This document shows, in pieces, positions 444-29,991 of a stretch of DNA of 64,000 nt. Source of the DNA: Myxococcota bacterium (GTDB lineage: Bacteria > Myxococcota_A > UBA9160 > UBA4427); contig OZ252299.1 of assembly GCA_965250285.1 (NCBI GenBank), forward strand, positions 2,976,001 to 3,040,000, in the 5' to 3' direction. Under the pieces are notes generated by a model. It ran no database searches. It was not told the origin of the DNA and worked only from the letters and a program-made list of their open reading frames with translations. Both the position numbers and the translations under genes were made by a program. Within the stretch, counting starts at the first letter, position 1. Every line of letters begins with the position of its first letter.

Positions 444-460
444 CGATACGGATCGTTACG
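444..460. promoter_or_regulatory. Candidate TetR operator copy 1, upstream of the ipdA operon
   Basis: CGATACG-GAT-CGTTACG imperfect palindrome; matches sites at 25189 and 29975. Confidence 0.65.
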
Positions 461-709
461 TTATTCGGCGGCGTCTCGGTCGACCGAGGTGCCTCTCGAG
501 CCGACGAGATCCCCCCGGTCGTCCAGATTCTGGATCCGCCGATCTCGCGGGCCCGAGCGCAACGCCCCCATGCCCGCCGGCCACCCTGCCCCCTACGCTT
601 CGCTTGGCGAGGGGAGCCGAGGCCGCCGCGCCCGAGCCTCCGCACCCGGCGGATCCGCCGCACCGGCGGACCGACCGTGCGTCGGCGGTCTGCCATAGAG
701 GAAGCACGA

Positions 710-1558
710 GTGGACAAGCGCACGACCGAGCGCGACGCGGTCGCCGAGCTGCGTGATGGGATGACCATCGGCATCGGCGGCTGGGGCTCGCGGCGAAAGC
801 CGATGAGCATCGTTCGCGAGATCCTCCGCACCGATCTCAAGGACCTGACCGTCGTGACCTACGGCGGCCCCGATGCCGGCCTGCTCTGCGCGTTCGGCCG
901 CGTGAAGAAGCTGATCTACGGCTTCGTCTCGCTCGACTCGATCCCGCTCGAGCCCCACTTTCGAAAGGCCCGCCAAGCCGGCAGCTTCGAAGCGGCCGAG
1001 CTCGACGAGGGCATGCTGCAGTGGGGCCTGCTCGCGGCCGCCCACCGCCTGCCCTTCCTGCCCACGCGCGCCGGCCTCGGCAGCGACGTGCCCGCGATCA
1101 ATTCGGTGCTGAAGACGGTGACCTCACCCTACGACGACGGCGAAGAGCTGCTGGCGATGCCCGCCCTCGATCTCGACGTGGCGTTCATCCACATGAACCG
1201 CGCCGACGAGAAGGGCAACGGCCAGTTCCTCGGCCCCGACCTGTACTTCGACGACCTGTTCTGTCTCGCCGCCGAGAAGCGCTTCATGACGTGCGAGGAG
1301 ATCATCCCGACCGAAGACTTCGCGAAGCACGGCTCGATCCACACGATGAAGATCAATCGCATGATGATCGACGGCGTGATCGAGGCACCCGGCGGCGCGC
1401 ATTTCACCGAGTGCCCGCCCGACTACGCGCGCGACGAGAAGTTCCAGAAGGAGTACGCCGCGACGGCCAAGGACGAGGCCGCGTGGGACGCCTTCGTGAA
1501 GACGTACCTGCAGTGCGCCGACGAGTTCGAGTACCAGAAGGTGGTGAAGGCCCGATGA
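710..1558 (+). CDS. ipdA: CoA-transferase-family alpha subunit, steroid ring C-opening hydrolase IpdA-like
   Basis: GIGGWGSRRKPM, YGFVSLDSIPLEPHF, RLPFLPTRAGLGSD; GTG start after AGAGGA; ATGA overlap with the next gene. Confidence 0.88.
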   Translation: MDKRTTERDAVAELRDGMTIGIGGWGSRRKPMSIVREILRTDLKDLTVVTYGGPDAGLLCAFGRVKKLIYGFVSLDSIPLEPHFRKARQAGSFEAAELDEGMLQWGLLAAAHRLPFLPTRAGLGSDVPAINSVLKTVTSPYDDGEELLAMPALDLDVAFIHMNRADEKGNGQFLGPDLYFDDLFCLAAEKRFMTCEEIIPTEDFAKHGSIHTMKINRMMIDGVIEAPGGAHFTECPPDYARDEKFQKEYAATAKDEAAWDAFVKTYLQCADEFEYQKVVKAR

Positions 1559-2313
1559 GCGAAGCAACCCGAGCAGAAGTGTGTGCGGTGGCGGTCGCGG
1601 AGGCCTTTCGCGGCGACGGCGAGATTCTGGCGAGCTCGTTCGGCACGGTTCCGGCGGTCGGAGCGCGGCTCGCGCGCATGACGTTCGAGCCCGATCTGCT
1701 GATGACCGACGGCATCGCGACGGTGCTCGAGAGCGTCGACCCCGTGTCGGGGCCGAAGCCCGAGCCGGTCTACGGCGCGTGGATGAACTTTCGCACCGTG
1801 TTCGACGTGGTGTGGTCGGGCACCCGGCATGTCGTCATGATCGCGAGCCAGATCGATCGCTTCGGCAATCAGAATTTCGCCTGCATCGGCCCGCACGCGA
1901 AGCCGAAGGCCCAGCTCCTCGGCATGCGCGGTGCGCCGGGCAACACGATCAACCACAAGACCAGCTACTGGGTGCCGAACCACAGCGTCAAGACGTTCGT
2001 CGAAAAGGTCGACTGCGTGTCGGGCGTCGGCAACGATCGCGCGAAGGCGCTCGGCGACGCCGGCTCGCGCTTCCACGACCTGCGATACGTCGTGTCGAAC
2101 CTCGGCGTATTCGACTTCGACACGCCGGGGGGCGCGATGCGGCTCGTGTCGGTGCACCCCGGCGTGACCGTCGAAGAGGTCGTCGAGCAGACCGGCTTCG
2201 AGCTGGCGATGGCCGACGAGATCAAGGAGAGCCGTCTGCCGACGGAAGAAGAGCTGAAGATCATGCGCGACTTCCTCGACCCCGAGTCGACGATGGCGCG
2301 CGAAGTCAGCTAG
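1555..2313 (+). CDS. ipdB: CoA-transferase-family beta subunit, IpdB-like
   Basis: TRAEVCAVA..FRGDGEILAS, QIDRFGNQN, LGMRGAPGNTINH. Confidence 0.88.
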   Translation: MSEATRAEVCAVAVAEAFRGDGEILASSFGTVPAVGARLARMTFEPDLLMTDGIATVLESVDPVSGPKPEPVYGAWMNFRTVFDVVWSGTRHVVMIASQIDRFGNQNFACIGPHAKPKAQLLGMRGAPGNTINHKTSYWVPNHSVKTFVEKVDCVSGVGNDRAKALGDAGSRFHDLRYVVSNLGVFDFDTPGGAMRLVSVHPGVTVEEVVEQTGFELAMADEIKESRLPTEEELKIMRDFLDPESTMAREVS

Positions 2314-2322
2314 AGGGCCGCC

Positions 2323-3381
2323 GTGCACGACGCGCTGCATACCCGCATCTGTGACCTGCTCGGGATCGAATACCCGATCATCCAGACCGGCATGGGCTGG
2401 GTGGCCGAGCCCGAGCTCGTCGCCGCGGTCAGCAACGCCGGCGCGATCGGCTTTCTCGCCGCCGCGACGATCCCACCCGACGAGGTCGAGGCGGCGATCG
2501 AGCGGGTCAAAGCCCTCACCGACCGCCCCTTCGGCGTGAACTTCCTGATGGACGCGCCCGGCGCCGACGTGATCACCGAGGCGATCCTGCGCCAGGGCGT
2601 GCGCGCAGCCGGCTACAACCGTGCGCCCTCGGCCGAGCTCATCGGCAAGTTGAAGGACGGCGGCGTCGTCTGCGTGCCGACCTGCGGCGCCGTCAAGCAC
2701 GCCGTGAAGGCCGAGAAGCTCGGCGCAGACATCATCATCGTGCAGGGCGGCGAAGGCGGGGGCCACACCGGCAGCGTCCCCACCTCGCTGCTCGTGCCTG
2801 GCGCCGTCGACGCGGTGAACGTGCCCATCGTCGGGGCGGGCGGGTTCTTCGACGGTCGCGGGCTCGTCTCGGCGCTCGCGTATGGCGCCGCCGGCGTCGC
2901 GATGGGCACCCGCTTCCTGCTGACGGCCGAGAGTCCGGTGCCCGATGTGACCACCGACCGCTACCTCGCGGCCGACGTCAGCGACGTGTTCGTCACGAGC
3001 GAGGTCGACGGCATGCCCCAGCGCGTCGTCGGCAACGAGCTCGTGCGCAAGCTCGAGACGCGCGGGCCCCTGGGCCGACTGGTCTTCGCGCTCGGCAACG
3101 CGATGGAGCTGCGCAAGACGACGGGGGCGACGATCCCCGAGCTGCTGCGCAGCGGCCTCGCGATGCGCAAGAACGAGCGGCTCACGCGATCGCAGCTGCT
3201 GATGGCGGCGAATGCCCCGATGCTCGCGAAGAAGGCGATGAACGACGGCGACCCGGTGAATGGCTACCTGCCGAGCGGCTCGGTGGCGGGGGCGATCGGC
3301 GACCGACCGCCGGCGGGCGACGTCGTCGAGCGCATCGTCGCCGAGGCCGAAGAGACCCTCGCACGCCTCGACGCCCGCTGA
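2323..3381 (+). CDS. ipdC: FMN-dependent nitronate-monooxygenase-family oxidoreductase, IpdC-like
   Basis: YPIIQTGMGWVA, QGGEGGGHTG, AGGFFDGRGL, AMGTRFLLT; directly follows ipdAB. Confidence 0.82.
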   Translation: MHDALHTRICDLLGIEYPIIQTGMGWVAEPELVAAVSNAGAIGFLAAATIPPDEVEAAIERVKALTDRPFGVNFLMDAPGADVITEAILRQGVRAAGYNRAPSAELIGKLKDGGVVCVPTCGAVKHAVKAEKLGADIIIVQGGEGGGHTGSVPTSLLVPGAVDAVNVPIVGAGGFFDGRGLVSALAYGAAGVAMGTRFLLTAESPVPDVTTDRYLAADVSDVFVTSEVDGMPQRVVGNELVRKLETRGPLGRLVFALGNAMELRKTTGATIPELLRSGLAMRKNERLTRSQLLMAANAPMLAKKAMNDGDPVNGYLPSGSVAGAIGDRPPAGDVVERIVAEAEETLARLDAR

Positions 3382-3417
3382 CCCGAACAGGACGACTCGT
3401 CGTCCACGGAGTGCCCC

Positions 3418-4170
3418 ATGGCCATCGAAACGAACATCGAAGACGGCGTCGGCGAGGTGGTGATCAACAACCCCCCCGTGAACGCCCTCGACAGCCGGGG
3501 CTGGTTCGACTTCGCGGCCGCGGTGCGCGAGATGGGCGAGCGGGGCGACGTGCACTGCGTCGTGGTGCGCGCCGAGGGCAAGGGCTTTCAGGCCGGCGTC
3601 GACATCAAGGAGCTGGCCGCCGACGGTACGAAGATCGTCGACGTGAACCGCGGCTGCTACGACAGCTTCGCCGCCGTCTACGACTGTCCGGTGCCGGTGA
3701 TCTCGGCGGTGAACGGCTTCTGCCTCGGCGGCGGCATCGGCATCAGCGGCGCGAGCGACATCGTGATCGCGGCCGACGACGCGACGTTCTCGCTGCCCGA
3801 GATCGACCGTGGGGCCCTCGGCGCAGCGACCCACCTGATGCGCCTCTTCGGCATGCAGAAGACCCGCTACATGCTCTACACCGGCGAGGCGATCGACGCC
3901 GAAGAGGCGCTGCGCCTCGGCGGCATCGAGCGCATCGTGCCCCGCGCCGAGCTGCGCGACGAGGCGATGAAGATGGCGCGCGTCATCGCGAGCAAGAGCC
4001 CGAAGGCGCTTCGCCTGGCCAAGTGGTCGCTCAACGGCATCGAGCTGCTCGACATCAAGAAGAGCTACCGGTTCGAGCAGGGCTTCACGCTCGAGCTCTA
4101 CACGTCGCCCGACAGCCAGGAAGCGCGTGACGCCTTCGTCGAGAAGCGCGACGCGAGCTTCGACGGCTGA
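3418..4170 (+). CDS. echA20: Enoyl-CoA hydratase family protein, EchA20-like
   Basis: PPVNAL, AGVDIKE, LPEIDRGALGAATHL, SYRFEQGFT. Confidence 0.82.
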   Translation: MAIETNIEDGVGEVVINNPPVNALDSRGWFDFAAAVREMGERGDVHCVVVRAEGKGFQAGVDIKELAADGTKIVDVNRGCYDSFAAVYDCPVPVISAVNGFCLGGGIGISGASDIVIAADDATFSLPEIDRGALGAATHLMRLFGMQKTRYMLYTGEAIDAEEALRLGGIERIVPRAELRDEAMKMARVIASKSPKALRLAKWSLNGIELLDIKKSYRFEQGFTLELYTSPDSQEARDAFVEKRDASFDG

Positions 4171-4205
4171 ACGCCCCCTCCCCTTCCAACACGCGGAACC
4201 CGAAC

Positions 4206-5375
4206 ATGGATCTCTCTTACACGTCGAAGCACGACGCCTTTCGCAAAGAGGCGCGCGCCTGGCTCGAGGCGAACGTGCCCTCCGAGCCCCTCGAGACCTT
4301 CGACAAGAAGGACGGCTTCGAAGCCCACCGCGCGTGGGAGAAGAAGCTGAACGAAGGCGGCTGGGCCATGGTGCCGTGGCCGGTCGAGTACGGGGGCCGC
4401 GGCGCCGATCTGCTCGAGTGGCTGATCTTCGAGGAGGAGTACTACCGCGTCGGCGCGCCGGGGCGCGTGAACCAGAACGGCATCTTCCTGCTCGGCCCGA
4501 CGATCATGGAGTACGGCACGCCCGAGCAGAAGAAGCAGTTCCTGCCGACGATGGCGTCGTCGGAGACCGTCTGGGCCCAGGGCTGGAGCGAGCCCAACGC
4601 GGGCAGCGACATGGCCAACATCCAGACGACGGCCGTGCGGGATGGCGATCACTATGTCGTCAACGGGCAGAAGACCTGGGCGAGCCGCGGCGCGTATGCG
4701 CACTGGCTCTTCGGGCTCTTCCGGACCGACCCCGAGTCGAGCCGACACAAGGGCCTCACCTTCGTGCTGTGCCCGCTCGACGCGCCGGGCGTGACGGTGC
4801 GGCCGATCGAGAAGATCAACGGCAAGGCCGCGTTCGCCGAGGTCTTCTTCGACAACGCGAAGGTGCCGGTCGAGAACACGCTCGGCGGCGTGGGCGAGGG
4901 TTGGAACGTCGCGATGGCGACGGCCGGCTTCGAGCGCGGCCTCATGCTGCGCAGCCCGGCCCGGTTCCAGAGCACGGCTCAACGACTCGCCGACCTCTAC
5001 AAGCGCACGGTCAAGGAAGGGGGCGACGTCGACCCCGCTCTGCGCGACCGGGTCACTCGCTGCTGGGTGGCCGCTGAAGCGTACGCGCTCAACACCTACC
5101 AGACGGTGTCGCGGCTGCTCGCAGGCGGCAAGATCGGCGCCGAGGCCAGCCTCAACAAGATCTTCTGGAGCGAGCTCGACATCGAGATGCACGAGTGCGC
5201 GCTCGCGCTGCTGGGTGTACGCGGTGAGCTGGTGCCCGGCTCTCCCGGTGCCGGCGACGTCGGCCAGTGGCTCGACGGCTTCATCTTCGCGCTCTCGGGG
5301 CCCATCTACGCTGGCACCAACGAGATCCAGCGCAACATCATCGCCGAGCGCATCCTCGGCCTGCCGCGGAAATAG
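4206..5375 (+). CDS. fadE31: Acyl-CoA dehydrogenase, FadE31-like
   Basis: WAQGWSEPNAGSD, GQKTW, GPIYAGTNEIQRNIIAER; context. Confidence 0.7.
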   Translation: MDLSYTSKHDAFRKEARAWLEANVPSEPLETFDKKDGFEAHRAWEKKLNEGGWAMVPWPVEYGGRGADLLEWLIFEEEYYRVGAPGRVNQNGIFLLGPTIMEYGTPEQKKQFLPTMASSETVWAQGWSEPNAGSDMANIQTTAVRDGDHYVVNGQKTWASRGAYAHWLFGLFRTDPESSRHKGLTFVLCPLDAPGVTVRPIEKINGKAAFAEVFFDNAKVPVENTLGGVGEGWNVAMATAGFERGLMLRSPARFQSTAQRLADLYKRTVKEGGDVDPALRDRVTRCWVAAEAYALNTYQTVSRLLAGGKIGAEASLNKIFWSELDIEMHECALALLGVRGELVPGSPGAGDVGQWLDGFIFALSGPIYAGTNEIQRNIIAERILGLPRK

Positions 5376-5389
5376 GGACGGACGTCGAC

Positions 5390-6448
5390 ATGCAGTTTCT
5401 GTTCAGCGAAGACCAGGAGATGCTCGCGCAGACGATCCGCGACTTTCTCGCGGGCGAATGCACCGCCGAGCACGTGCGCGCGCTGTGGGAGACCGAGACC
5501 GGACGATCGCCCGCGTTCTGGCAGCAGCTCACCGAGATCGGCCTGCCCGGGCTGCTCGTGCCCGAGGAGCACGGCGGCCTCGGCATGAGCGAGGTGGACG
5601 CGACGCTGGTGTTCGAGGAGACCGGCCGCGCGGCGCTCGCCGAGCCCTTGATCTCGACCGCCGCCGTCGCAGCGCCCCTGCTGCGTGAGATCGGCGGTGA
5701 CCTGGCGGCGACCTGGCTGCCGAAGATCGCGGCGGGCGAGGCCATCGTGGCCGTCGGACACGCGCAGAGCCCCTTCGTGGCGGACGCGCATGTCGCGCAG
5801 CTCCTGCTGCTCCCCGATGGCGACGATCTGCACGCCGTCGATCCGGCGAACGTCACGCTCACGGCGCAGACGAGCAACGACCAGAGCCAGCGCCTGTTCA
5901 GCGTCGAGTGGACGCCGTCGGGCGACACGCTCGTCGCCGAGAAGACGGTCGGCGCCGCGCTGCAGGCCGCCGCGCTCGACCGCGGCGCCCTCGCCAGCGC
6001 CTCCGAACAGCTGGGCGTGTGCTCGACGCTCATCGAGATGGGCGCCCTCTACGCGACCCAGCGCAAGCAGTTCGGCGTCGCGATCGGCACGTTCCAGGCG
6101 GTCAAGCACCGGTTGGCCAACGCCAAGGTCCAGCTCGAGTACGCACGCTCGGTCGTCTACCGCGCCGCACACTCGGTCGCCGTCGCCGCACCGACGAGGG
6201 CCGTCGACGTCTCGATGGCGAAGGTGACTTCGAGCGACGCCGCGACATTCGCGGCGAAGGAGTCGCTCCAGGTGCACGGCGCCATCGGTTACACCTACGA
6301 GCAGGACCTCCACGTGTGGATGAAACGCGCGTGGTCGCACGACCTCGCTTGGGGCACCAACGCATGGCACCGCGGTCGCCTCGCGGCCGCCCTGCTCGAC
6401 GACGACGGCCCGATCGCCGCCTTCGGCTTCCAGCCCCGGGCGGCCTGA
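5390..6448 (+). CDS. Acyl-CoA dehydrogenase, FadE32-like partner subunit
   Basis: RKQFGVAIGTFQAVKH, LQVHGAIGYTYEQDL; short form typical of heteromeric ACAD partners. Confidence 0.8.
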   Translation: MQFLFSEDQEMLAQTIRDFLAGECTAEHVRALWETETGRSPAFWQQLTEIGLPGLLVPEEHGGLGMSEVDATLVFEETGRAALAEPLISTAAVAAPLLREIGGDLAATWLPKIAAGEAIVAVGHAQSPFVADAHVAQLLLLPDGDDLHAVDPANVTLTAQTSNDQSQRLFSVEWTPSGDTLVAEKTVGAALQAAALDRGALASASEQLGVCSTLIEMGALYATQRKQFGVAIGTFQAVKHRLANAKVQLEYARSVVYRAAHSVAVAAPTRAVDVSMAKVTSSDAATFAAKESLQVHGAIGYTYEQDLHVWMKRAWSHDLAWGTNAWHRGRLAAALLDDDGPIAAFGFQPRAA

Positions 6449-6523
6449 CGCCGACGCCCCTCCCTCATCGGGTATCTTTCCCGGCCCTTCGGGCGGGCAG
6501 CCCGAAGCCTCAAGGAGCCCCCC

Positions 6524-6955
6524 ATGTCGACCCCCCAAGCCCCGGCCATCGAGGGCTGGTTCTCGAACGACCCCGAGCCGCACCTGATCGGCACGCGCTG
6601 CAAGGTCTGCGGGACGTACTACTTCCCCGGCCAGCGCGACTTCTGCCGCAATCCCGACTGCTTCTCGACCGAGTTCGAAGAGGTGCGCCTCTCGCGCACG
6701 GGCAAGGTGTGGTCGTACACGAAGCACTTCTATCAGCCGCCCGACCCGTACATCGTCGATGGCGAGTTCGAGCCGTACACGATCGTCGGCGTCGAGCTCG
6801 AAGAAGAGAAGATGATGGTGCTCGGTCAGCTCGCCTCGGACGCCGACGAGAGCGTCCTCACGGCGGGCCTCGAGATGGAGCTCGTCATCGAGAAGCTCTA
6901 TCACCAGGACGGCACCGACTACACCGTGTGGAAGTGGAAGCCCCTCGCAGGCTGA
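6524..6955 (+). CDS. Zn-ribbon/OB-fold (DUF35) protein
   Basis: CKVCG..FCRNPDC zinc ribbon, LSRTGKVWSYT; precedes a thiolase-like gene. Confidence 0.88.
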   Translation: MSTPQAPAIEGWFSNDPEPHLIGTRCKVCGTYYFPGQRDFCRNPDCFSTEFEEVRLSRTGKVWSYTKHFYQPPDPYIVDGEFEPYTIVGVELEEEKMMVLGQLASDADESVLTAGLEMELVIEKLYHQDGTDYTVWKWKPLAG

Positions 6956-7022
6956 GCCACCGCCGGTCCACCACGCTCACGCATCTCGCGCGCGAAGCGC
7001 GCACCCTGAAGGAGAACCCATC

Positions 7023-8210
7023 ATGGGCCACGAAGTCGCAGTGCTCGGTGTCGGCATGCACCAATGGGGCAAGTGGGGCAAGAACTTCGTCGAGTACGGC
7101 GTGAAGGCCGCGCAGGACGCGCTCAAGGATGCCGGCCTCGACTGGCGCGACATCCAGCTGATCGCCGGCGCCGAGACGGTGCGCAACGGCTACCCCGGCT
7201 ACGTCGCGGGTGCGACGTTCGCCGAGGCGATGGGCTGGACGGGCGCTCGCATCTCGAGCTCGTACGCGGCCTGCGCATCGGGCGCCCAGGCGATCAACGA
7301 CGCTCGGGCCCAGATCCTTGCCGGCTTCTGTGACGTCGCGCTGGTGATCGGCGCCGACACGACGCCCAAGGGCTTCCTCGCCCCGAACGCGGGCGAGCGC
7401 TGGACCGACCCCGACTGGCTGCGCTTCCGCCTGATGGGCTGCACGAACCCCACCTACTTCGCACTCGCGGCACGCCGGCGCATGGACGTCTACGGCGCGA
7501 CCGAAGAGGATTTCGCGGCGGTGAAGGTCAAGAACGCCAAGCACGGCATGGCGAACCCCTACGCGCGGTATCACAAGGAGTTCACCATGCAGCAGGTGCT
7601 CGAGTCGCCCATGGTGGCCGACCCGCTGCGCCTGTTCGAGATCTGCGCGACGAGCGACGGCGCTGCGGCGTGCATCCTGACCAGCATGGAGTTCGCCAAG
7701 AGCCGCAACATCGATCCGATCAAGGTGAAGGCGGTGGCAACGACGACGCCGACGTTCCCCTGCACGACGCTCGAGATGCCGAACATCTCGACCGACTCGG
7801 CTGTCGCGGTCGAAGAGCCGCTGCGGCCCTTCAAGGCCAGCATCGCGCACGACGCATACGAAGAGGCCGGGCTCGGCCCCGAAGACATGTCGATCGCCGA
7901 GGTCTACGACCTCAGCTCGGCCCTCGAGCTCGACTGGTACGAGAACCTCGGCCTGTGTGGCGAGGGCGAGGCCGAGAAGCTGCTGCGCGACGGCGCCACG
8001 AAGATCGGCGGGCGCATCCCGGTCAACACGAGCGGGGGCCTCGCCTGCTTCGGCGAGGCCGTTCCGGCCCAGGCCGTCGCCCAGGTCTGCGAGTTGACCT
8101 GGCAGCTGCGCGGCGACGCGGGCGCCCGCCAGGTCGAGGGCGCGAAGGCCGGCATCACGGCGAACATCGGCCTGTTCGGCCACGGCTCGTCGGTCATCTG
8201 CACCAAGTAG
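7023..8210 (+). CDS. SCP-x/lipid-transfer-protein-type thiolase-like enzyme
   Basis: LGVGMHQWGKWG, AACASG, ICATSDGAAA, PVNTSGGL. Confidence 0.85.
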   Translation: MGHEVAVLGVGMHQWGKWGKNFVEYGVKAAQDALKDAGLDWRDIQLIAGAETVRNGYPGYVAGATFAEAMGWTGARISSSYAACASGAQAINDARAQILAGFCDVALVIGADTTPKGFLAPNAGERWTDPDWLRFRLMGCTNPTYFALAARRRMDVYGATEEDFAAVKVKNAKHGMANPYARYHKEFTMQQVLESPMVADPLRLFEICATSDGAAACILTSMEFAKSRNIDPIKVKAVATTTPTFPCTTLEMPNISTDSAVAVEEPLRPFKASIAHDAYEEAGLGPEDMSIAEVYDLSSALELDWYENLGLCGEGEAEKLLRDGATKIGGRIPVNTSGGLACFGEAVPAQAVAQVCELTWQLRGDAGARQVEGAKAGITANIGLFGHGSSVICTK

Positions 8211-8249
8211 AAGCAACCGGCGCGCGGCGCGCGCCGACGGAGAATCGAA

Positions 8250-9401
8250 ATGCCCGAAGCCTATATCGTCGACGCGCTGCGCACGCCGGTCGGTCGCAAG
8301 AAGGGGAGCCTCTCGCAGGTCCACCCCGCCGACCTCGGCGCCCACAGCCTGAAGGCGCTGATGGACCGCACCGACATGGACGCCGGCGCCGTCGAGGACG
8401 TCGTCTTCGGCTGCGTCGACACGATCGGCCCCCAGGCCGGCGACATCGCCCGCACCTGCTGGCTGGCGGCCGGCCTCCCCGAGCACGTGCCCGGCACCAC
8501 CGTCGATCGCCAGTGCGGCAGCGCCCAGCAGGCGATCCACTTCGCGGCCCAGGCCGTCATGAGCGGCACGATGGACGTCGTCGTCGCGGGCGGCGTGCAG
8601 GCGATGAACCTGATCCCGATCTCGGCCGCGATGTACGCCGGCCAGGAGTACGGCTTCGAGAACCCGTTCACCGGCAGCCCCGGCTGGGTCGAGCGCTACG
8701 GCGACGGTGAGGTCTCGCAGTTCAACTCGGCCGACATGATCGCGAAGAAGTGGGACATCTCGCGTGAAGACATGGAGCGCTTCGGCCTGCAGAGCAACGA
8801 ACGGGCGCTCAAGGCCATCGCCGACGGTCGTTTCGAGCGTGAGATCGTGCCGGTGGGCGACTTCGCCGTCGACGAGCCGCCGCGCGAATCGAGCCTCGCG
8901 AAGATGGCGACGCTCAAGACCCTCCAGGAGGGCGGCCGCGTCACCGCAGCCGTGTCGAGCCAGATCGCCGATGCGTCGGCGGCGCTGCTGATCGTGAGCG
9001 AGCAGGGTCTGAAGGATCACGGCCTCACGCCGCGCGCGCGCATCCACCACATGTCGGTGCGCGCCGACGATCCCGTGTGGATGCTCACCGCGCCCATCCC
9101 GGCCACGGAGCACGCCTTCAAGAAGACCGGCATGACGAAGAACGACATCGATCTCGTCGAGATCAACGAGGCGTTCGCCTCGGTCGTGATCGCCTGGCAG
9201 AAAGAGTCGGGCTTCGAGGACGAGAAGGTCAACGTGAACGGCGGCGCGATCGCCCTCGGTCACCCGCTCGGCGCGACCGGCGCACGGCTCATGACCACCC
9301 TGCTCCACGAGCTCGAGCGCACCGGCGGCCGCTACGGCCTGCAGACCATGTGCGAGGGCGGCGGTCAGGCGAACGTCACCATCATCGAGCGACTCGGCTA
9401 G
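8250..9401 (+). CDS. fadA6: Acetyl-CoA C-acyltransferase (thiolase), FadA6-like
   Basis: DRQCGS, EINEAFA, GHPLGATG, TMCEGGGQAN; HHMSVRADDPVWML. Confidence 0.8.
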   Translation: MPEAYIVDALRTPVGRKKGSLSQVHPADLGAHSLKALMDRTDMDAGAVEDVVFGCVDTIGPQAGDIARTCWLAAGLPEHVPGTTVDRQCGSAQQAIHFAAQAVMSGTMDVVVAGGVQAMNLIPISAAMYAGQEYGFENPFTGSPGWVERYGDGEVSQFNSADMIAKKWDISREDMERFGLQSNERALKAIADGRFEREIVPVGDFAVDEPPRESSLAKMATLKTLQEGGRVTAAVSSQIADASAALLIVSEQGLKDHGLTPRARIHHMSVRADDPVWMLTAPIPATEHAFKKTGMTKNDIDLVEINEAFASVVIAWQKESGFEDEKVNVNGGAIALGHPLGATGARLMTTLLHELERTGGRYGLQTMCEGGGQANVTIIERLG

Positions 9402-9503
9402 CCGCAGCGACACGCGTCGTCGGCGGCGGCCCACGGCCAGCCGAAACACACCGGATTCGACGCGATCGGGCGAAGAGCCCGATGGCGTCGAAGGAGAGAG
9501 AAC

Positions 9504-10403
9504 ATGATCTGTGAGGGACGCGTCGTCATCGTGACCGGCGCAGGCGGCGGCATCGGCCGCGCCCACGCCATCGCCTTTGCGGCCGAAGGCGCGAAGGTCG
9601 TCGTAAACGACCTCGGCACCAGCAACCACGGCGAGGGCGAGAGCGCCGGCCCCGCCGAGCAGGTCGCCGAAGAGATTCGCGCGATGGGGGGCGAGGCCGT
9701 GGCCAACGGCGCCGACGTGGCCGACTTCGCCGAAACCAAGCAGCTCGTCGAGCAGGCGATCGACACGTTTGGTGGCCTCGACGTCGTGGTCAACAATGCG
9801 GGCTTCCTGCGCGACCGAATGTTCATGTCGACCAGCGAAGACGAGTGGGACGCCGTGGTCCGGGTTCACATGAAGGGCCACTTCTGCACGTCGCGGCACG
9901 CCGCCGAGTACTGGCGCGGCCGCAGCAAGGCCGGCGAGACCGTCGACGCCCGCATCATCAACACCAGCTCGGGCGCCGGTCTGCAGGGCAGCGTCGGCCA
10001 GGCCACCTACTCGGCGGCCAAGGGCGGCATCGCGACCCTCACCCTGGTGCAGGCCGCCGAGCTCGGCCGCTACGGCGTGACGGCCAACGCGATCGCCCCG
10101 GCGGCGCGCACGCGCATGACCGAGGCGATCTTCACCGACATGGCGGCGCCGGAGGACGGCGCATTCGACGAGAACGCGCCCGAGAACATCTCGCCGCTCG
10201 TCGTCTGGCTCGGCTCGGCCGAGAGCCGCGACGTCACGGGCCGCGTCTTCGAGGTGAAGGGCGGCCTCATTGGCACGAGCGTCGGCTGGCATGACGGCCC
10301 GATCGTCGACAAGGGCAGCCGCTGGGCGCCCGACGAGGTCGGTGCGGCCGTGCACGAGGTCATCGAGAAGAGCCCCGCGCCCCAGAAGGTCTTCGGCACC
10401 TGA
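9504..10403 (+). CDS. Short-chain dehydrogenase/reductase
   Basis: TGAGGGIG, NNAG, YSAAK. Confidence 0.9.
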   Translation: MICEGRVVIVTGAGGGIGRAHAIAFAAEGAKVVVNDLGTSNHGEGESAGPAEQVAEEIRAMGGEAVANGADVADFAETKQLVEQAIDTFGGLDVVVNNAGFLRDRMFMSTSEDEWDAVVRVHMKGHFCTSRHAAEYWRGRSKAGETVDARIINTSSGAGLQGSVGQATYSAAKGGIATLTLVQAAELGRYGVTANAIAPAARTRMTEAIFTDMAAPEDGAFDENAPENISPLVVWLGSAESRDVTGRVFEVKGGLIGTSVGWHDGPIVDKGSRWAPDEVGAAVHEVIEKSPAPQKVFGT

Positions 10404-10461
10404 GCCCCGGCGGCGAAGCCGAACTGCCCCTCCCCGCAAGCGCCCCACCGAGGCAAGACCG

Positions 10462-11601
10462 ATGGATCTGAAGTTCAACGAAGAGCAGCTCGAGCTGCGC
10501 GCCATGGCCGAGAGCTTCCTCGAAGAGCACTCGGGCAGCGAGCAGGTTCGCGCGGCCGCCGAGAGCGAGCTTGGCTACGACGAGAAGGTCTGGGAGCAGG
10601 TGGCGACCGAGCTCGGCTGGGCGGCGGTCCACATCCCCGAAGCCTACGGCGGCCTCGGCCTCGAGTACGCCGATCTCGTGGCGCTCGTCGAAGTGATGGG
10701 AGGCGCCCTCTTCTGCAGCCCCTTCTTCGGCACCGTCGCGCTCGGCGCCAACGCCCTGCTCGTCGGCGGCGACGAGGCACAGAAGCAGCAGTGGCTGCCC
10801 GGCATCGCCGAGGGAACGACCCGAGCCACGCTCGCGGTCGCCGAAGAGAATGGACTCGCGGGGGCAGAAGGCGTCGAGGCCAGCTTCACGCGGGAGGGCG
10901 ACGATTTCGTACTGCGCGGCGCCAAGCGCTACGTGGTCGACGGTCACGTCGCTGACCTGATCATCGTCGCGGCGCGCGCCGAGGGCACGACGGGGCGCGA
11001 GGGCATCGGCCTCTTTCTCGTGCCGGCCGACTCGCCCGGCGTCGAGCGCCGCGCGCTGCCCACGCTCGACCAGACCCGACGCCTCGCCGAGGTCGTGCTC
11101 GACGGCGTGCGTGTCGGCGCCAACGCCTCGCTCGGCACGGCCGGCCAGGCCGCGCCGATGCTCGAGAAGACGCTGCACCTCGCGGCCATCGCCCTGGCCG
11201 CCGAGCAGGTCGGAGGCGCCGAGCGGTGCCTGCAGATGGCGGTGGCGTACGCCCAGGAGCGCGAGCAGTTCGGACGTGTGATCGGGTCGTTCCAGGCGAT
11301 CAAGCACAAGTGCGCCGACATGATGGTGCTCGTCGAGGCAGCGCGGTCGGCGGTGTACTACGCCGCGTGCGCAGCCACGGACGACACCGACGAGCTGCCG
11401 GCGGTGGCCTCGCTCGCGAAGGCATACTGCTCCGACGCCTACTTCCAGTGCGCCGCCGACAACATCCAGATTCACGGCGGCGTCGGCTTCACCTGGGAGT
11501 ACGACTGCCACCTGCACTTCAAGCGCGCCAAGTCGAGCGAGAGCCTGCTCGGCGATCCGCCCCACCATCGCGAGCAGGTCGCGCAGGCGATCGGGCTCTA
11601 G
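10462..11601 (+). CDS. Acyl-CoA dehydrogenase (FadE33/IpdE2-like partner subunit)
   Basis: REQFGRVIGSFQAIKH, IQIHGGVGFTWE. Confidence 0.85.
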   Translation: MDLKFNEEQLELRAMAESFLEEHSGSEQVRAAAESELGYDEKVWEQVATELGWAAVHIPEAYGGLGLEYADLVALVEVMGGALFCSPFFGTVALGANALLVGGDEAQKQQWLPGIAEGTTRATLAVAEENGLAGAEGVEASFTREGDDFVLRGAKRYVVDGHVADLIIVAARAEGTTGREGIGLFLVPADSPGVERRALPTLDQTRRLAEVVLDGVRVGANASLGTAGQAAPMLEKTLHLAAIALAAEQVGGAERCLQMAVAYAQEREQFGRVIGSFQAIKHKCADMMVLVEAARSAVYYAACAATDDTDELPAVASLAKAYCSDAYFQCAADNIQIHGGVGFTWEYDCHLHFKRAKSSESLLGDPPHHREQVAQAIGL

Positions 11602-11603
11602 CG

Positions 11604-12380
11604 GTGGACGCCCTCGACTTCTCGGGCAAGGCCGTCATCGTCACCGGCGGCACGAAGGGCGTCGGGCGCGGCATCACGACGCGCTTCCTCGAGCAGGGCG
11701 CCGACGTCGTCGTCTGCGGGCGCAGCGAGCCCGATGCGCCGATCCAGGCGGGCGGACGCGAGGCCCGGTTCATCGCCGCAGACGTGCGCGACGTCGAGCA
11801 GGTGCAAACGGTCGTCGACTTCGCGAAGGAACGATGCGGACGGCTCGACGTGCTCGTGAACAACGCGGGCGGGGCACCCGAGGCCGATGCCGCGACCGCC
11901 TCGCCTCGATTCACCGAAGCGATCGTCCGCCTCAACATGCTCGCGCCGATCAACTTCGCGCAGGCGGCGAACGCGGTGATGCAGAGCCAGGACGAGGGCG
12001 GCTCCATCGTGAACATCGCGAGCGTATCGGGCGTGCGCCCCTCACCCGGCACTGCCGCCTATGGCGCGGCCAAGGCAGGCCTTCTGTCGTTCACGACGAC
12101 GGTCGCTGTCGAGTGGGCACCCAAGGTGCGCGTCAACGCCGTGACGGCGGGCATGATCCGAACGGAGCAGGCTCACCTGCACTACGGTGACGAAGAGGGC
12201 ATCGCAGCGGTCGGCGCGACCGTGCCGCTCGGCCGCATGGGCGAGCCCGACGACGTCGGCGACACCTGCCTCTATCTCGCGTCCCCCCTCGCCCGCTACG
12301 TGAGCGGCGCGAACGTGCTGCTGCACGGCGGGGGCGAAGCGCCGGCGTTCCTCGCGGCGGCGAAGAACAAGAGCGCCTGA
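11604..12380 (+). CDS. Short-chain dehydrogenase/reductase
   Basis: TGGTKGVG, NNAGG, YGAAK; GTG start 2 nt after the upstream stop. Confidence 0.88.
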   Translation: MDALDFSGKAVIVTGGTKGVGRGITTRFLEQGADVVVCGRSEPDAPIQAGGREARFIAADVRDVEQVQTVVDFAKERCGRLDVLVNNAGGAPEADAATASPRFTEAIVRLNMLAPINFAQAANAVMQSQDEGGSIVNIASVSGVRPSPGTAAYGAAKAGLLSFTTTVAVEWAPKVRVNAVTAGMIRTEQAHLHYGDEEGIAAVGATVPLGRMGEPDDVGDTCLYLASPLARYVSGANVLLHGGGEAPAFLAAAKNKSA

Positions 12381-12403
12381 ACTGCGACCACAAGGAGCCC
12401 CCG

Positions 12404-25121: not shown

Positions 25122-25188
25122 GGGGCGGGGGACCTCGAAACGGGCGATTGGGGAGGATTGGGGACGCCTGGAAGGCCCGAAGAGATTA

Positions 25189-25205
25189 CGATACGCTGCG
25201 ACTCG
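25189..25205. promoter_or_regulatory. Candidate TetR operator copy 2, between divergent fadE30 and fadD3
   Basis: ATTA-CGATACG-CTG-CGACTCG. Confidence 0.65.
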
Positions 25206-25259
25206 AAACAACCCCCGGCGGGGATCCCGCCTTATGCGACCGGCGCACCGGAGAAGCCG

Positions 25260-26816
25260 ATGGAACCGACCACCCCCCAGCTCGTCGAGGGCGCGGCCGC
25301 ACGCTTCGGCAGCGACACCTACATCGAAGACGGCGACGTACAGATCAGCTTCGAGGATCTGGCCGATCGCGTCGTGCGCGCCGGCCGTGCGTTCGCGGCC
25401 GCGGGCGTCGAACCCGGCGACTGCGTCGGTGTCTGGGCGCCGAACTCCTGGCAGTGGATCGTGTCGGCCCTCGGCCTGCAGGCCGCCGGTGCGACCCTCG
25501 TCGCGCTGAACACGCGCTGGAAGGGCGCCGAGGCAGCGTACGCCCTCTCGCGCACGAAGACGAAGCTCGTCGTCACGGCGGGCGACTTCGTGGGCTTCGA
25601 CTACCTCGGCGAGCTGCAGAAGCAGGATCTGCCCGACCTGCAGAAGATCGTCTCGGTCGGCGACGACACGAACCGCGTCGAAGACTTCGATGCCTTCATC
25701 GAGGGCGGTGCGCGCTTCGACGAGGCCGAGCTGCGCAAGCGAGCCGCGGCGGTCGAGGCCGACACAACGAGCGACCTGATCTTCACGAGCGGCACGACCG
25801 GCCAGCCGAAGGCCGTGATGACCGCCCATGAACAGAACATCCGCGCGTTCGATGCCTGGGGCACCGTGGTCGGCCTGCGCCCCGGCGATCGCTACATCCT
25901 GATCAGCCCCTTCTTTCACGCCATGGGCTACAAGGCCGGCTGGCTCGCGTGCCTGATCAAGGGCGCGACCGCCCTGCCCCACGCCGTCTTCGACGCCGAT
26001 GCCATCACCGAGCGCGTCTCGAAGGATCGCATCAGCGTGCTCGTCGGCCCGCCGACGATCTACCAGACGCTGCTCGCCTTGCCCGACATCGCCGAGCGTG
26101 ACGTCGAAGCGCTTCGACTCGCGGTGACCGGCGCCGCCCCGGTGCCGGTCGAGATGATCGCGCGCATGCGCAGCGAGCTCGGCTTCGAGACGATCATTAC
26201 CGGCTACGGGCTGACCGAGTGCTGCGGCATCGTGAGCATGTGTCGCCACGACGACGCGCCCGAAACCATCTCACGGACGAGCGGCCGCGCGATCCCCGAC
26301 GTCGAGGTGAAGTGCGTCGATCGCGAAGGCGTCGAAGTGCCGCGGGGTGAGCCCGGCGAGGTCGTCGTGCGCGGATACAACCTGATGCAGGGCTATCTCG
26401 GGGACCGCGCCGCCACCGACGAGACGATCGACGGGGACGGCTGGCTGCACACCGGCGACATCGCCGTGATGGACGACGCGGGCTACGTCACGATCACCGA
26501 CCGCATCAAGGACATGTACATCTGCGGTGGCTTCAACTGCTACCCGGCCGAGATCGAGAACATCCTCTTCGGTCGCGGCGACATCGCGCAGGTGGCGGTC
26601 GTGGGCACGCCCGACGACCGCATGGGCGAGGTCGGCGTCGCGTTCGTCGTCCCGGGCCCGGGCGCGCGCCTCGATGCCGAAGGGCTCCGCGGGTGGAGCC
26701 GCGACCACATGGCCAACTACAAGGTGCCCCGACGCTTCGAGCTCGTCGACGAGCTGCCGACGAACGCGACGGGCAAGATCGACAAGATCAAGCTGCGTGA
26801 GGTGGCCGCGGGCTGA
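25260..26816 (+). CDS. fadD3: Acyl-CoA synthetase, FadD3 (HIP-CoA ligase)-like
   Basis: IFTSGTTGQPK, PFFHAMGYKAG, GYGLTE, HTGD, GGFNCYPAEIE; divergent from fadE30. Confidence 0.78.
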   Translation: MEPTTPQLVEGAAARFGSDTYIEDGDVQISFEDLADRVVRAGRAFAAAGVEPGDCVGVWAPNSWQWIVSALGLQAAGATLVALNTRWKGAEAAYALSRTKTKLVVTAGDFVGFDYLGELQKQDLPDLQKIVSVGDDTNRVEDFDAFIEGGARFDEAELRKRAAAVEADTTSDLIFTSGTTGQPKAVMTAHEQNIRAFDAWGTVVGLRPGDRYILISPFFHAMGYKAGWLACLIKGATALPHAVFDADAITERVSKDRISVLVGPPTIYQTLLALPDIAERDVEALRLAVTGAAPVPVEMIARMRSELGFETIITGYGLTECCGIVSMCRHDDAPETISRTSGRAIPDVEVKCVDREGVEVPRGEPGEVVVRGYNLMQGYLGDRAATDETIDGDGWLHTGDIAVMDDAGYVTITDRIKDMYICGGFNCYPAEIENILFGRGDIAQVAVVGTPDDRMGEVGVAFVVPGPGARLDAEGLRGWSRDHMANYKVPRRFELVDELPTNATGKIDKIKLREVAAG

Positions 26817-26867: not shown

Positions 26868-28448
26868 ATGTCTGCGCCCGCGCCGCTGCTCGAGATCCCC
26901 TGCCTGTGGTCGCTGATCGAGGCGCGGGCCGATTCGACGCCCGATGCGCTCTTCGCGGTCGACGAGCAGGAGCGCACCTGGAGCTTCGCCGACTACCGCG
27001 ACGCGAGCCTCCGCTGCGCGGCCGGCCTCGCCGCGCTGGGCGTCGGCGAGGGCACGCGCGTGTCGTGGGTGCTGCCCACCTGGCTCGAAGCGATGGCGCT
27101 CGTCGGGGGCCTCGCGCGCCTCGGCGCGGTGCAGAACCCGATCCTACCGATCTACCGCGAGCGCGAGATCGGCTTCGTGACGCGTCAGATCGAAGCCTCG
27201 CTGCTGGTCGTGCCCGGCACATTCCGGGGCTTCGACTATGCAGCGATGGCGAACGACATCGCCGCGCAGCAGCCGGGCCTCGACGTGCTCGTCGTCGACC
27301 GCGACGCGCCGTCGGGCGACCCCGCGCAGCTCGCCCCGTGGCGGGCGCCCGATGACGATCCGGTGCGCTGGCTCTTCTACACGAGCGGGACGACCGCCGA
27401 TCCGAAGGGAGCGCAGCATACGGACGGCACGCTCAGCGCGTTCTCGCTCGGTCTTTCGCGCTGCGTCGACCTGCAGCCCGACGATCGCGTCGCGCTCGTC
27501 TTTCCCTTCACGCACATCGGGGGCATCGGCTGGCTCTACTGCGGGCTGCAGGCCGGCGCCGGTCACATCGCGGTCGAGGCATTCGACCCGGCGACGACGA
27601 TCCCGCTGCTCGCGAAGCACGGCGTCACCCAGGCGACTGCGGGCACGGCCTTTCATCAGGCGTATCTCGCCGCCCAGCGCGCCCAGCCCGGCGAGACGCT
27701 CTTTGCGCACGTGCGCACGTTCCCGGGCGGCGGCGCACCGAAGCCGCCGCAGCTGCACTACGACGTCAAGAACGAGCTCGGCGGCACGGGCATCGTCTCG
27801 GGCTACGGCATGACCGAGTGCCCGACGATGGCGATGAATCGTGCGGGCGACGACGACGAGAAGCTCGCGCACACCGAGGGTCAGAGATCGCCCGATACGG
27901 TCGAGCTGCGCGTCGTCACGCTCGACGAGCGCGTGGCCGCGGCGGGCGAGGAAGGCGAGATCCGCGTCAAGGCGCCTCAGCTCTGCAAGGGCTACGTCGA
28001 CGCTTCGCTGAACGAAGCGGCCTTCGACGCCGACGGGTTCTTTCGCACCGGCGACCTCGGCCATCTCGATGCCGACGGCTACGTCGTCATCACCGGCCGG
28101 CTGAAGGACGTGATCATTCGCAAGGGCGAGAACATCAGCGCCAAGGAGATCGAGGATCTCCTCTACACGCACCCCGACGTCGAGGACGTCGCGGTGATCG
28201 GTCTCCCCGATGCGAAGACGGGCGAGCGCTGCTGCGCCGTCGTGGTGCCGAAGGCGGGGCGCCCGGCGCTCGATTTCGACGCGATGGCGGCGCATCTGCG
28301 CGCCGCGAAGCTGATGGTGCAGAAGATCCCCGAGCAGCTCGAGATCGTCGACGCGCTGCCGCGCAACCCGACCGGCAAGGTCGTGAAGCACGAGCTGCGC
28401 GATCGGTTCGGCGAACCCGGTGGCGCCGCGCCTCAGAACGAGACGTAG
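26868..28448 (+). CDS. AMP-binding acyl-CoA ligase (cyclohexanecarboxylate-CoA-ligase-like)
   Basis: YTSGTTADPKG, GYGMTE, RTGD, IIRKGENI. Confidence 0.88.
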   Translation: MSAPAPLLEIPCLWSLIEARADSTPDALFAVDEQERTWSFADYRDASLRCAAGLAALGVGEGTRVSWVLPTWLEAMALVGGLARLGAVQNPILPIYREREIGFVTRQIEASLLVVPGTFRGFDYAAMANDIAAQQPGLDVLVVDRDAPSGDPAQLAPWRAPDDDPVRWLFYTSGTTADPKGAQHTDGTLSAFSLGLSRCVDLQPDDRVALVFPFTHIGGIGWLYCGLQAGAGHIAVEAFDPATTIPLLAKHGVTQATAGTAFHQAYLAAQRAQPGETLFAHVRTFPGGGAPKPPQLHYDVKNELGGTGIVSGYGMTECPTMAMNRAGDDDEKLAHTEGQRSPDTVELRVVTLDERVAAAGEEGEIRVKAPQLCKGYVDASLNEAAFDADGFFRTGDLGHLDADGYVVITGRLKDVIIRKGENISAKEIEDLLYTHPDVEDVAVIGLPDAKTGERCCAVVVPKAGRPALDFDAMAAHLRAAKLMVQKIPEQLEIVDALPRNPTGKVVKHELRDRFGEPGGAAPQNET

Positions 28449-29140
28449 AGCCCACCCGTCACGTCGCCCTGCGAGAGCACGGTGGTGTTGTCGAGCGACA
28501 CACCGCAGGTCAGCCCCCCCGATGAGGCGCAGAACCAGGACGCGTCACTGTTGATCACCGTGCCGAGGTAGCGAATCTGCGCCTTGATCCCGACGTGCTT
28601 CACGATCGGGATCTTCAGCCCCCCGATCGCCGAGAACGAAAAGAACCAGTCGGTGCTGGCGCTGGTGTTGATCGGCGTGATGTGTGTGGCGCCGATGCCG
28701 AGGCCGATGAACGGCACGAGGTGCTTCTGCATCGGCAGGTCGAGCTCTCCGCCGAGCTGCAGGATGCCGATGTCGACGTCGAAGCTGGTCGAAGGCGGTA
28801 CGCCCGTCGCCGAGTCGAAGTGCGCCGTCGTGGCCTGACGCGAGTAGCTGACGAAGGCAAAGCCGTCTTCCTGCACGCGCAGCCCGGCCTGCACCGTCCA
28901 CGCCTGGGCCGGGTCGATGTCGATGTTGCCCTCTTCGAGGTTCAGCGAGCCGCCGAACTGGATGCCGTAGAGGCCGGTGATCTGCACCTTGCCCGGATCG
29001 ATGATCTCGGGCTTCGGTCGAGAGCCCTGGGCGAGCGCGGACTCGCCCACGAGGAGCGCGCACGCGGCGAGCAGCCCGGCGGCGGCGCGCAGCTGTCGGC
29101 GGCGGCATCGGCCGAGTCGATGCGGGTGCTTGCGGATCAT
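28433..29140 (-). CDS. Outer-membrane beta-barrel protein
   Basis: Signal peptide ending ALAQ, beta-strand pattern, C-terminal GLYVSF. Confidence 0.72.
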   Translation of the reverse strand: MIRKHPHRLGRCRRRQLRAAAGLLAACALLVGESALAQGSRPKPEIIDPGKVQITGLYGIQFGGSLNLEEGNIDIDPAQAWTVQAGLRVQEDGFAFVSYSRQATTAHFDSATGVPPSTSFDVDIGILQLGGELDLPMQKHLVPFIGLGIGATHITPINTSASTDWFFSFSAIGGLKIPIVKHVGIKAQIRYLGTVINSDASWFCASSGGLTCGVSLDNTTVLSQGDVTGGLYVSF

Positions 29141-29281
29141 CCATCCCCCCTCGGCGCCGAGCGCCGTCTGGACGAGCATCGCGCGAATCGACGCGATTCC
29201 AATGGCCTATCGGCATTTCTGCCGATTCATGAAGGGGGATTCGGAGGTAAGGGGGTTCGGAACGCCGGCGGTCGACTCGGG

Positions 29282-29881
29282 CTATCGGCTCGCGAGGATG
29301 CCCGAGAGCGCCAGATCGACCATCGGGCCCACGCTCTTCGCGTTCAGCCGGCCCCCCTTGAAAAAGAGGGTGACTGCGATGGGCCCGACCACCAGATCGG
29401 TGGCCAGGTCGATATCGAGATCGGCGGCAATCTCGCCGCGCTCACGGGCCCGCTCGAACGCTTCGCTGAGCGGCCGACGACGGCCGAGGCTGACCGGCGT
29501 GAAGAGTTCGTCGAGCTCGGGGTTGTGGCTGCGCTCGCCGGCGAGGCTCGGCAGCACGGCTGCGAGCGCCGTCGTGTTGAACGTCTCGATGTAGCTCGTC
29601 AGCATGCGCTTGAGGTCGTCGGCCAGACGCCCGGTATCGCACGCCTCGAAGGCCGGCAGCTGACCGAACGCCTCGACGACGAGGGGCAGCTTCGAGGGCC
29701 AGCGGCGATAGATCGTGGCCTTGCCGACGCCCGCGCGTGTGGCGACCCCCTCGACCGTGAGCGCCGAGAAGCCGACCTCGGCGAGCAGCTCGAGCGTGGC
29801 ATCGAGGATCGCCTTGTGGGCCTCCTCGCTGCGGGGCCGGCCGGTGCTCGCCGCCGTCTCGGTCTTGCCGGGTGCGCTCAT
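29282..29881 (-). CDS. TetR/AcrR family regulator
   Basis: GRPRS..ILDATLELL..LTVEGVATRAGVGKATIYRRWPSK. Confidence 0.93.
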   Translation of the reverse strand: MSAPGKTETAASTGRPRSEEAHKAILDATLELLAEVGFSALTVEGVATRAGVGKATIYRRWPSKLPLVVEAFGQLPAFEACDTGRLADDLKRMLTSYIETFNTTALAAVLPSLAGERSHNPELDELFTPVSLGRRRPLSEAFERARERGEIAADLDIDLATDLVVGPIAVTLFFKGGRLNAKSVGPMVDLALSGILASR

Positions 29882-29974
29882 GATTCCCTTGGGGTGCGGT
29901 CCACTCGTCCCGATGGGGCGGCGTGGAGTCGGTGACGGGCGGGTCCCTGGCGCGCCCGTCCCGCTCGGACATTA

Positions 29975-29991
29975 CGATACTATACGTCTCG
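29975..29991. promoter_or_regulatory. Candidate TetR operator copy 3, between tetR and the divergent ligase
   Basis: ATTA-CGATACT-ATA-CGTCTCG in an AT-rich patch. Confidence 0.7.

Follow-up and report, generated by a model that had tools for sequence, protein, structure and literature searches.

This study concerns a 64,000-nucleotide stretch of a Myxococcota genome (the window), which carries genes for the catabolism of the steroid C/D-ring intermediate methylhexahydroindanedione propanoate (HIP), a TetR-family regulator designated P0001 and three copies of a palindromic sequence (the box) predicted to be its operator. In mycobacteria and rhodococci, the same HIP genes belong to KstR2, a TetR-family regulator whose boxes are found at the ipdA unit, in the fadE30-fadD3 intergenic region and at its own gene (PMC3068626, PMC5380842); its box is the 14-bp sequence AnCAAGnnCTTGnT (PMC3068626). 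No KstR2 is entered for the two proteobacteria compared in a table of PMC5380842. TesR/TeiR of Comamonas testosteroni is likewise a non-KstR2 regulator of steroid degradation outside Actinobacteria, but it is a positive regulator of the LuxR type, and both protein and site are unrelated to P0001 (PMC8700777). Deletion and complementation showed EdcR (EGO55_13520) of Caenibius tardaugens, which contains PF00440 and PF16859, to act as a repressor, and it responds to estrone and estradiol in free form (PMC8700777); the edc cluster degrades rings A and B down to HIP (PMC7793797). Ms6564 of Mycolicibacterium smegmatis (PDB 4jl3) binds as a dimer of dimers (PMC4150764), and its footprinted operator is ACGAGACG-N3-CGTCTCGT (PMC3273814).

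The predicted operators and the regulator P0001

The window corresponds to G000:C1:2976001-3040000 of the source genome (G000), a single contig of 6.25 Mb with 68.6% GC. The elements that concern its regulation are as follows.

29282..29881, minus strand: P0001, a regulator with TetR_N and TetR_C_11 domains, placed in the EdcR branch by domain search and trees
442..462, unstranded: predicted operator 1, TACGATACGGATCGTTACGTT, with a second overlapping register at 437-457; rank 3 in the genome with the tetR-only matrix
25187..25207, unstranded: predicted operator 2, between the divergent fadE30 and fadD3; rank 12 with that matrix
29973..29993, unstranded: predicted operator 3, upstream of tetR and 20 bp before the divergent ligase gene at 30014; rank 1 with that matrix
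434..462, plus strand: predicted sigma-70 promoter of the ipdA operon, TCGACA (434-439), 17 bp, TACGTT (457-462), with operator 1 in the spacer

We propose, with a probability of roughly 0.8, that P0001 would bind this box and block the promoters that serve the two HIP units, the edc-like operons and tetR itself, and that a compound of the pathway would release it. An initial annotation of the same DNA had pointed out 17-bp imperfect palindromes starting at 444, 25189 and 29975, and these are indeed present, all intergenic and each directly preceded by TA. The consensus it gave, CGATACG-N3-CGTnTCG, had to be abandoned, with no exact match in the genome and arms complementary at 5 of 7 positions at each site. 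Extension by two bases on each side afforded a 21-bp palindrome, TACGATACG-N3-CGTATCGTA, starting at 442, 25187 and 29973, which is the sequence that P0001 may bind. The pattern shared by the three sites, TACGATAC-N4-CG-N3-CG, which was picked post hoc, has 3 occurrences in the window, where 0.02 would be expected, and 4 in the whole genome.

A symmetric matrix was then derived from 21 distinct sites upstream of tetR in relatives, with the source genome left out (the tetR-only matrix). The genome-wide scan that the initial annotation had called for placed the three window sites at the ranks given above, and 13 of the 15 matches scoring at least 14 were intergenic by gene calls that span 85% of the genome. 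A richer matrix gave 15 intergenic matches with a score of at least 15, compared with 0 to 5 in 10 resampled controls. Additional predicted sites were thus located beyond the window in the same genome. The KstR2 box AnCAAGnnCTTGnT, which the initial annotation had not seen in these regions, was absent from the whole window and occurred twice in the genome. Operator 3, lying upstream of tetR, is likely an autoregulation site.

The results of the protein comparisons indicated, in line with the initial annotation, that P0001 is not KstR2. A reference KstR2 (locus L299), whose identity was confirmed by a match to PDB 4w97/4w1u at E 1e-75, aligned with P0001 only in the C-terminal part (25.8 bits, E 3e-4) and fell outside the P0001 tree group, on a long branch. 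The nearest solved relatives of P0001 are 2fq4, 2zb9 and 4jkz/4jl3; among the 46 structure matches listed for it, KstR aligns in the helix-turn-helix only and KstR2 does not appear. PF17932, which we take to be the KstR2 domain, gave only weak matches of 25-33 bits in the source genome. KstR2 differs from P0001 in its C-terminal family and in its helix, and the predicted P0001 regulon is wider than the 15 KstR2 genes. The recognition helix of P0001, AGVGKATIYRRW, is near-identical to that of Ms6564, AGVGKQTIYRWW, and is invariant in 29 of 30 loci. Ms6564 is a full-length homologue (E 2e-14) whose operator is also an 8-3-8 palindrome, but it is a broad regulator of DNA-repair and other genes, reported to be activating, and no link to steroid genes is seen in the available text of PMC3273814.

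EdcR is closer to P0001, with the same two domains and tree branch. P0001 is 40% identical over 184 residues to the TetR of the edc cluster of Croceicoccus (Altererythrobacter) estronivorus MH-B5 (locus L131), which aligns over the full length; the gene order of L131 is that of the edc estrogen cluster of PMC8700777, from which this TetR is inferred to be MB02_RS00150. Thirty UBA9160 proteins formed one branch, which was joined by this EdcR homologue and, besides the protein of locus L116, by five others. The joining branch had a Shimodaira-Hasegawa-like approximate likelihood ratio (SH-aLRT) support of 97 in a tree of 92 rows, from which 9 short rows had been dropped, and of 99 in a tree of 43 rows, from which long branches had been removed and in which distant rows had been thinned. 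These trees suggest that the P0001 branch is sister to the EdcR homologue rather than a proven orthologue. Of the 12 positions in the operator proposed for EdcR, TnnCnnTACnAnTnGTAnnGnnA, the three window sites match 9, 8 and 9. On the P0001-box matrix, the edc boxes of MH-B5 score 19.0 and 25.6; the operator centre is G-N3-C at the P0001 boxes and nAnTn in the EdcR proposal.

The initial annotation had presented both operator and regulator as new, which does not stand, given that, within TetR_C_11, the protein falls in the EdcR branch and that the box follows the operator type published for Ms6564 and proposed for EdcR. A box was found upstream of 21 of 60 distant TetR_C_11 genes, in a sample partly picked by the recognition-helix peptide, and the operator type is therefore a trait of the subfamily. 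At 38 distant TetR_C_11 loci, no HIP homologue of at least 45% identity was found nearby, ipdB being outside the set of neighbour genes sought.

The same breadth could mean that the boxes are bound by another factor, either the second TetR_C_11 protein of the source genome, the only other one above the cut-off, or a paralogue, and that P0001 regulates only itself. This is quite unlikely, since the helix of the second protein, SGASRTTIYAWW, differs from that of P0001 and no top-ranked site lies near its gene; moreover, the relatives with boxes mostly hold a single P0001 match at E 1e-20 or better, and the P0001 helix hardly varies among the loci.

Conservation of the box and promoter geometry

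The comparison set comprised 40 relative genomes, and P0001 was matched in 32 of them; 29 related loci were fetched. The closest relatives of P0001 are 54-77% identical and come mostly from metagenome-assembled genomes labelled Myxococcota or Deltaproteobacteria, a few carrying other submitter labels. Upstream of tetR, the palindrome was present within 4 mismatches in 22 of the 29 related loci, and three of the tetR genes without it sit behind a co-directional gene. For the other genes, orthologues were picked first and their upstream regions were then scored with the tetR-only matrix at a threshold of at least 12. The results showed that the box recurs upstream of ipdA in 26 of 30 loci including the source genome (25/29 relatives) and upstream of fadD3 in 21 of 30 (20/29 relatives), as compared with 0/30 gene bodies and 0/150 shuffles for each gene. 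This examination of orthologous upstream regions, another check proposed in the initial annotation, thus bore out its three sites. The KstR2 box AnCAAGnnCTTGnT was found in none of the 60 ipdA and fadD3 upstream regions of UBA9160-type loci, and the same pattern does detect boxes in 2 of 5 actinobacterial loci.

Among genomes outside the training set, the ipdA box was found in 11 of 13 of the same order and in 1 of 2 of the same class, and at 0 of 18 tested loci (from 28 matches) in other classes of the phylum. The strict pattern gave 212 matches in the 40 relatives and its reversed control 27. One relative, G033 (99% complete), has the HIP cluster, with no tetR match, no edc-like acyl-CoA dehydrogenase (ACAD) and no box at ipdA or fadD3. 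The box is conserved across the order of UBA9160-type Myxococcota.

In sphingomonads, where ipdA mostly lies behind another gene, 1 of 16 ipdA loci reached the threshold. This weak EdcR-type box (12.2) is in C. estronivorus, 28 bp before the ipdA of its HIP cluster (G041:C4:52066; L266 8066), and was not seen before ipdA at the 15 other sphingomonad loci; a loose pattern gave 115 matches in C. estronivorus and 158 in the control. The site could be a link between EdcR and HIP genes in a culturable strain, or chance.

As shown in the feature list, operator 1 lies inside the predicted ipdA promoter. Over the loci, the ipdA promoter consensus is TTTACA-17-TAntnT, with the box in the spacer between -35 and -10. 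Among 39 box-bearing ipdA loci, a promoter-like match of at least 8/12 was oriented toward ipdA in 32 and away from it in 4; the candidate in the window scores under the threshold of the promoter-scan program. The TACGAT read as a -10 box in the initial annotation is instead an operator arm, the conserved ipdA -10 being TACGTT. Promoter matches at the other sites are weaker than at ipdA (at least 8/12 in 0/23 fadE30/fadD3 and 7/25 tetR loci), and operator 2 overlaps a weak minus-strand candidate, TTGTTT-17-TAATCT, of 6/12.

Since the box sits between -35 and -10 of ipdA, the geometry points to repression, and P0001 would act by blocking RNA polymerase. Activation, as reported for Ms6564, which is a positive regulator and binds upstream of and partly over the -35 (PMC3273814), is very unlikely here, because the box fills the ipdA spacer and the nearer relative, EdcR, is a repressor. 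In addition, CG steps recur every 5 bp within the box, and at 27 of 39 ipdA sites a second register is offset by 5 bp, which fits two dimers on opposite faces of the DNA as in Ms6564; P0001 may thus act as a dimer of dimers.

The sites do overlap TA-rich hexamers, and a conserved -35 and -10 flank the ipdA site, so that the conserved words might be taken for promoter elements only, that is, AT-rich -10 boxes standing out in a 69% GC genome. We consider this highly improbable, more so than any other explanation, because the conserved positions are palindromic CG steps in a normally free spacer, the reversed-pattern control falls far below the true pattern, a TetR protein of another organism has been footprinted on the same word, and G033 carries the genes without the word.

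Several points weigh against binding and repression by P0001. The genomes compared are kin and not independent, so that the counts overstate independence, and the negative-control genome is G033 alone. The ipdA box is absent in G038 and weak in G016, though both carry the TetR; the fadD3 box is below threshold in 9 of 30 loci; and G035 has 5 pattern matches (control 2) yet neither tetR nor HIP genes. A paralogue could read the box, as its presence at distant TetR_C_11 genes indicates, and G003 and G018 have closer paralogues with boxes of their own. The trees are quick searches without bootstrap, built on the best 80 of more than 600 pattern matches, and the group in the 43-row tree was defined after the 92-row tree had been seen. 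The EdcR operator is itself an in-silico proposal, and no electrophoretic mobility shift assay or footprint term occurs in the available text of its paper (PMC8700777). On the comparative evidence as a whole, the suggestion of a non-KstR2 TetR as repressor of the HIP (C/D-ring) genes is nevertheless likely to be right.

HIP genes and the edc-like module as predicted targets

The HIP gene set of the window comprises ipdAB, ipdC, echA20, fadA6, ipdF, fadD3 and ACAD homologues, for which the mycobacterial gene names are presumed to apply. PDB 6co6/6con, cited below, is taken by us to be IpdAB; SDR denotes a short-chain dehydrogenase/reductase.

710-1558, plus strand: ipdA, subunit of the COCHEA-CoA hydrolase (PDB 6co6/6con, E 6e-103)
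1588-2313, plus strand: ipdB, subunit of the COCHEA-CoA hydrolase (PDB 6co6/6con, E 2e-74)
2323..12865, plus strand: rest of the HIP operon, first ipdC-like, echA20-like, an ACAD pair, a DUF35/OB protein and a thiolase-like Ltp, then a fadA6-like thiolase, SDR, ACAD, SDR and MaoC
23158-23940, minus strand: ipdF-like SDR (NF005880 over cut-off)
23937-25121, minus strand: fadE30-like ACAD, named by position
25260..26816, plus strand: fadD3, HIP-CoA ligase family (NCBIfam NF005801, 691.5 bits against a cut-off of 657)
26868..28448, plus strand: second acyl-CoA ligase, after a 51-bp gap behind fadD3
30014..31606, plus strand: acyl-CoA ligase outside the core set (none of the 25 family cut-offs shown reached)

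Five neighbours in the ipdA operon exceeded their family cut-offs (NF005925, NF004715, NF005865, NF005861 and NF005893). The individual ACAD names rest on position, the search having given no match at E 1e-60; the pair of fadE30-like and ipdF-like genes is also found in the actinobacterial loci L296-L300. The ligase at 26868 is likely co-transcribed with fadD3, and a homologue (60%) follows fadD3 in G016 and G031 and directly follows a box in G023. Its neighbourhood suggests a stronger link to the regulon than that of the ligase at 30014, which was matched in 16 of 40 relatives, 15 of the same family. The initial annotation had counted the 30014 ligase in the regulon, and this holds in part: a box lies within 1.5 kb in 10 of 17 loci but within 400 bp in only 4 of 17. 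In G020, G006 and G023, the gene diverging from tetR is a P450 homologue. The 30014 ligase is thus probably part of the unit diverging from tetR, not a core member but a possible member of the regulon.

Three further observations were made in this part of the window. The DUF35/OB-fold protein and the thiolase-like Ltp at 6524-8210 (NF004715 over cut-off) lie within the HIP operon and are retained in G031, G033 and the C. estronivorus cluster; to our knowledge, the KstR2 genes include no equivalent of either. Between the two HIP units, an Erm-like rRNA methyltransferase gene at 21977-22825 (plus strand; top family Erm23S_rRNA_broad, 191 bits, below the cut-off of 212) is possibly an inserted resistance-type gene. 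A GIY-YIG domain gene at 12850-13791 (minus strand) is antisense to the MaoC gene where the two meet and shares the last 16 bases with it.

The regulon as drawn in the initial annotation was confined to the C/D ring. The C/D-ring genes are boxed, but this scope proved too narrow, because edc-like genes outside the KstR2 set are boxed as well. Part of the relatives' pattern matches (63 sites from 13 genomes) was mapped to genes of the source genome, and outside the window these sites recurred before an ACAD operon at 3042502 (12 genomes), an SDR gene at 3079061 (8), a ligase gene at 3087301 (5), a CaiB transferase gene (3) and another ACAD gene (3). In the orthologue-first test, the box preceded the edc-like ACAD at 26 of 30 loci and the edc-like SDR at 10 of 27; in the source genome, the SDR is the third gene behind a box at 3076489. 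The best homologues of the edc genes there are the SDR (56%), a 3-hydroxy-3-methylglutaryl-CoA (HMG-CoA)-synthase-like protein (45%), two enoyl-CoA hydratases (47% and 40%), ACADs (51-52% and 37%) and a MaoC pair (38% and 36%), with an indolepyruvate oxidoreductase (53%) near them. Of the relatives, 28 are at least 90% complete; 24 of these have both tetR and the edc-like ACAD, and the other 4 have neither. For EdcR, control of the upper edc pathway has been reported (PMC8700777), whereas the P0001 box also stands before the HIP operons.

The edc cluster includes the 4-hydroxyestrone dioxygenase EdcB. The beta-oxidation part of the cluster is present in the source genome, but the EdcB query gave no match there and matches in 9 of 41 genomes. 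Estrogen 4,5-seco or 9,10-seco entry in the source genome was considered and set aside, as no EdcB/HsaC-type dioxygenase was found with this query. KshA_C matches reached up to 135 bits in the source genome versus 231-242 in G012 and G019, the only two genomes with strong ones; FAD_binding_2 and MoCoBD_1 matches are present in its domain listing, and its best EdcA-like P450 has 33% identity. In C. estronivorus, a second, paralogous edc-like cluster (L262; G041:C1:610001-630000) contains genes for an oxidoreductase, Ltp, an HMG-CoA-synthase-like protein, a thiolase, a MaoC pair, an ACAD pair and a P450, with no box scoring at least 11; the substrate of such modules is therefore not readable from homology. 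A contig of the same genus (L301; G001:C244:1-5638) holds together an EdcB-like dioxygenase, a VOC protein, Ltp and a second EdcR-branch TetR, a set not found in the source genome with the same queries.

Other boxes were noted elsewhere in the source genome. A strong one (score 21; G000:C1:3302061) is separated by 11 bp from a downstream fumarate reductase/succinate dehydrogenase operon (L094 12308-14050, minus strand); a similar word is present in G001, and no listed match of farther relatives mapped to this gene. Succinyl-CoA is an end product of HIP catabolism. Another (18.9; G000:C1:2311852) precedes a side-chain operon resembling chsH2-chsH1-ltp2 (L095 7943-10587, plus strand), and two overlapping boxes 5 bp apart (G000:C1:5419557-5419582; L093) precede a family III CoA-transferase gene that is also boxed in G001 and G026.

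Presumed effector and significance

The least certain step is release, which may be effected by a steroid or seco-steroid upstream of HIP-CoA. Such an early effector is a guess that we hold to be slightly more likely than not, because P0001 would need to switch on steps upstream of HIP and because EdcR senses free steroid. Alternatively, P0001 could be a functional stand-in for KstR2 that senses HIP-CoA, with the edc-like genes merely co-regulated; this concerns the effector only and is compatible with binding of the box by P0001. It would agree with the position of tetR next to fadD3, or to the ligase behind fadD3, in many relatives and with boxes at both HIP transcription units, and late intermediates can serve as effectors, as for KstR2 (PMC5380842). 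We regard it as possible but distinctly less probable: among characterised proteins, the nearest to P0001 is EdcR, on which free estrone and estradiol act as inducers (PMC8700777), tetR is present or absent together with the edc-like ACAD, G033 has HIP genes without tetR, and the similarity to KstR2 is slight and C-terminal. The box before the edc-like genes weakens HIP-CoA as the presumed effector. Conversely, with no EdcB-type dioxygenase and an EdcA-like P450 of only 33% identity, estrogen sensing is not transferable to P0001.

The protein family and the operator type are already published, and what may be new is the HIP wiring in this lineage. The literature searched, from which subscription papers were largely missing, contained no account of HIP genes under an EdcR-type repressor or of how steroid genes are regulated in the UBA9160 lineage. 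Tentatively, and with less than even odds, one EdcR-branch repressor may run the whole B/C/D-ring pathway across the order, its TetR sensing a compound of an undescribed steroid or seco-steroid entry route that the regulon would mark, because most members are without the known ring-A dioxygenases (EdcB, HsaC). If so, the enzymes of the entry route would be sought in the ACAD-CaiB-MaoC-MaoC-ACAD operon, the HMG-CoA-synthase-like unit, the P450 and the orphan CoA ligases.

Bacterial routes of steroid degradation share HIP catabolism as their last stage, for which KstR2 is the characterised regulator in Actinobacteria. The system described here is a candidate alternative, in which an EdcR-type repressor would have been recruited for control of these genes in a different phylum. 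The type of switch is ordinary; the interest lies in the wiring and in the missing ring-A step. Across a genome, the box may also serve as a marker by which unassigned acyl-CoA enzymes of uncultured Myxococcota can be linked to steroid-ring metabolism.

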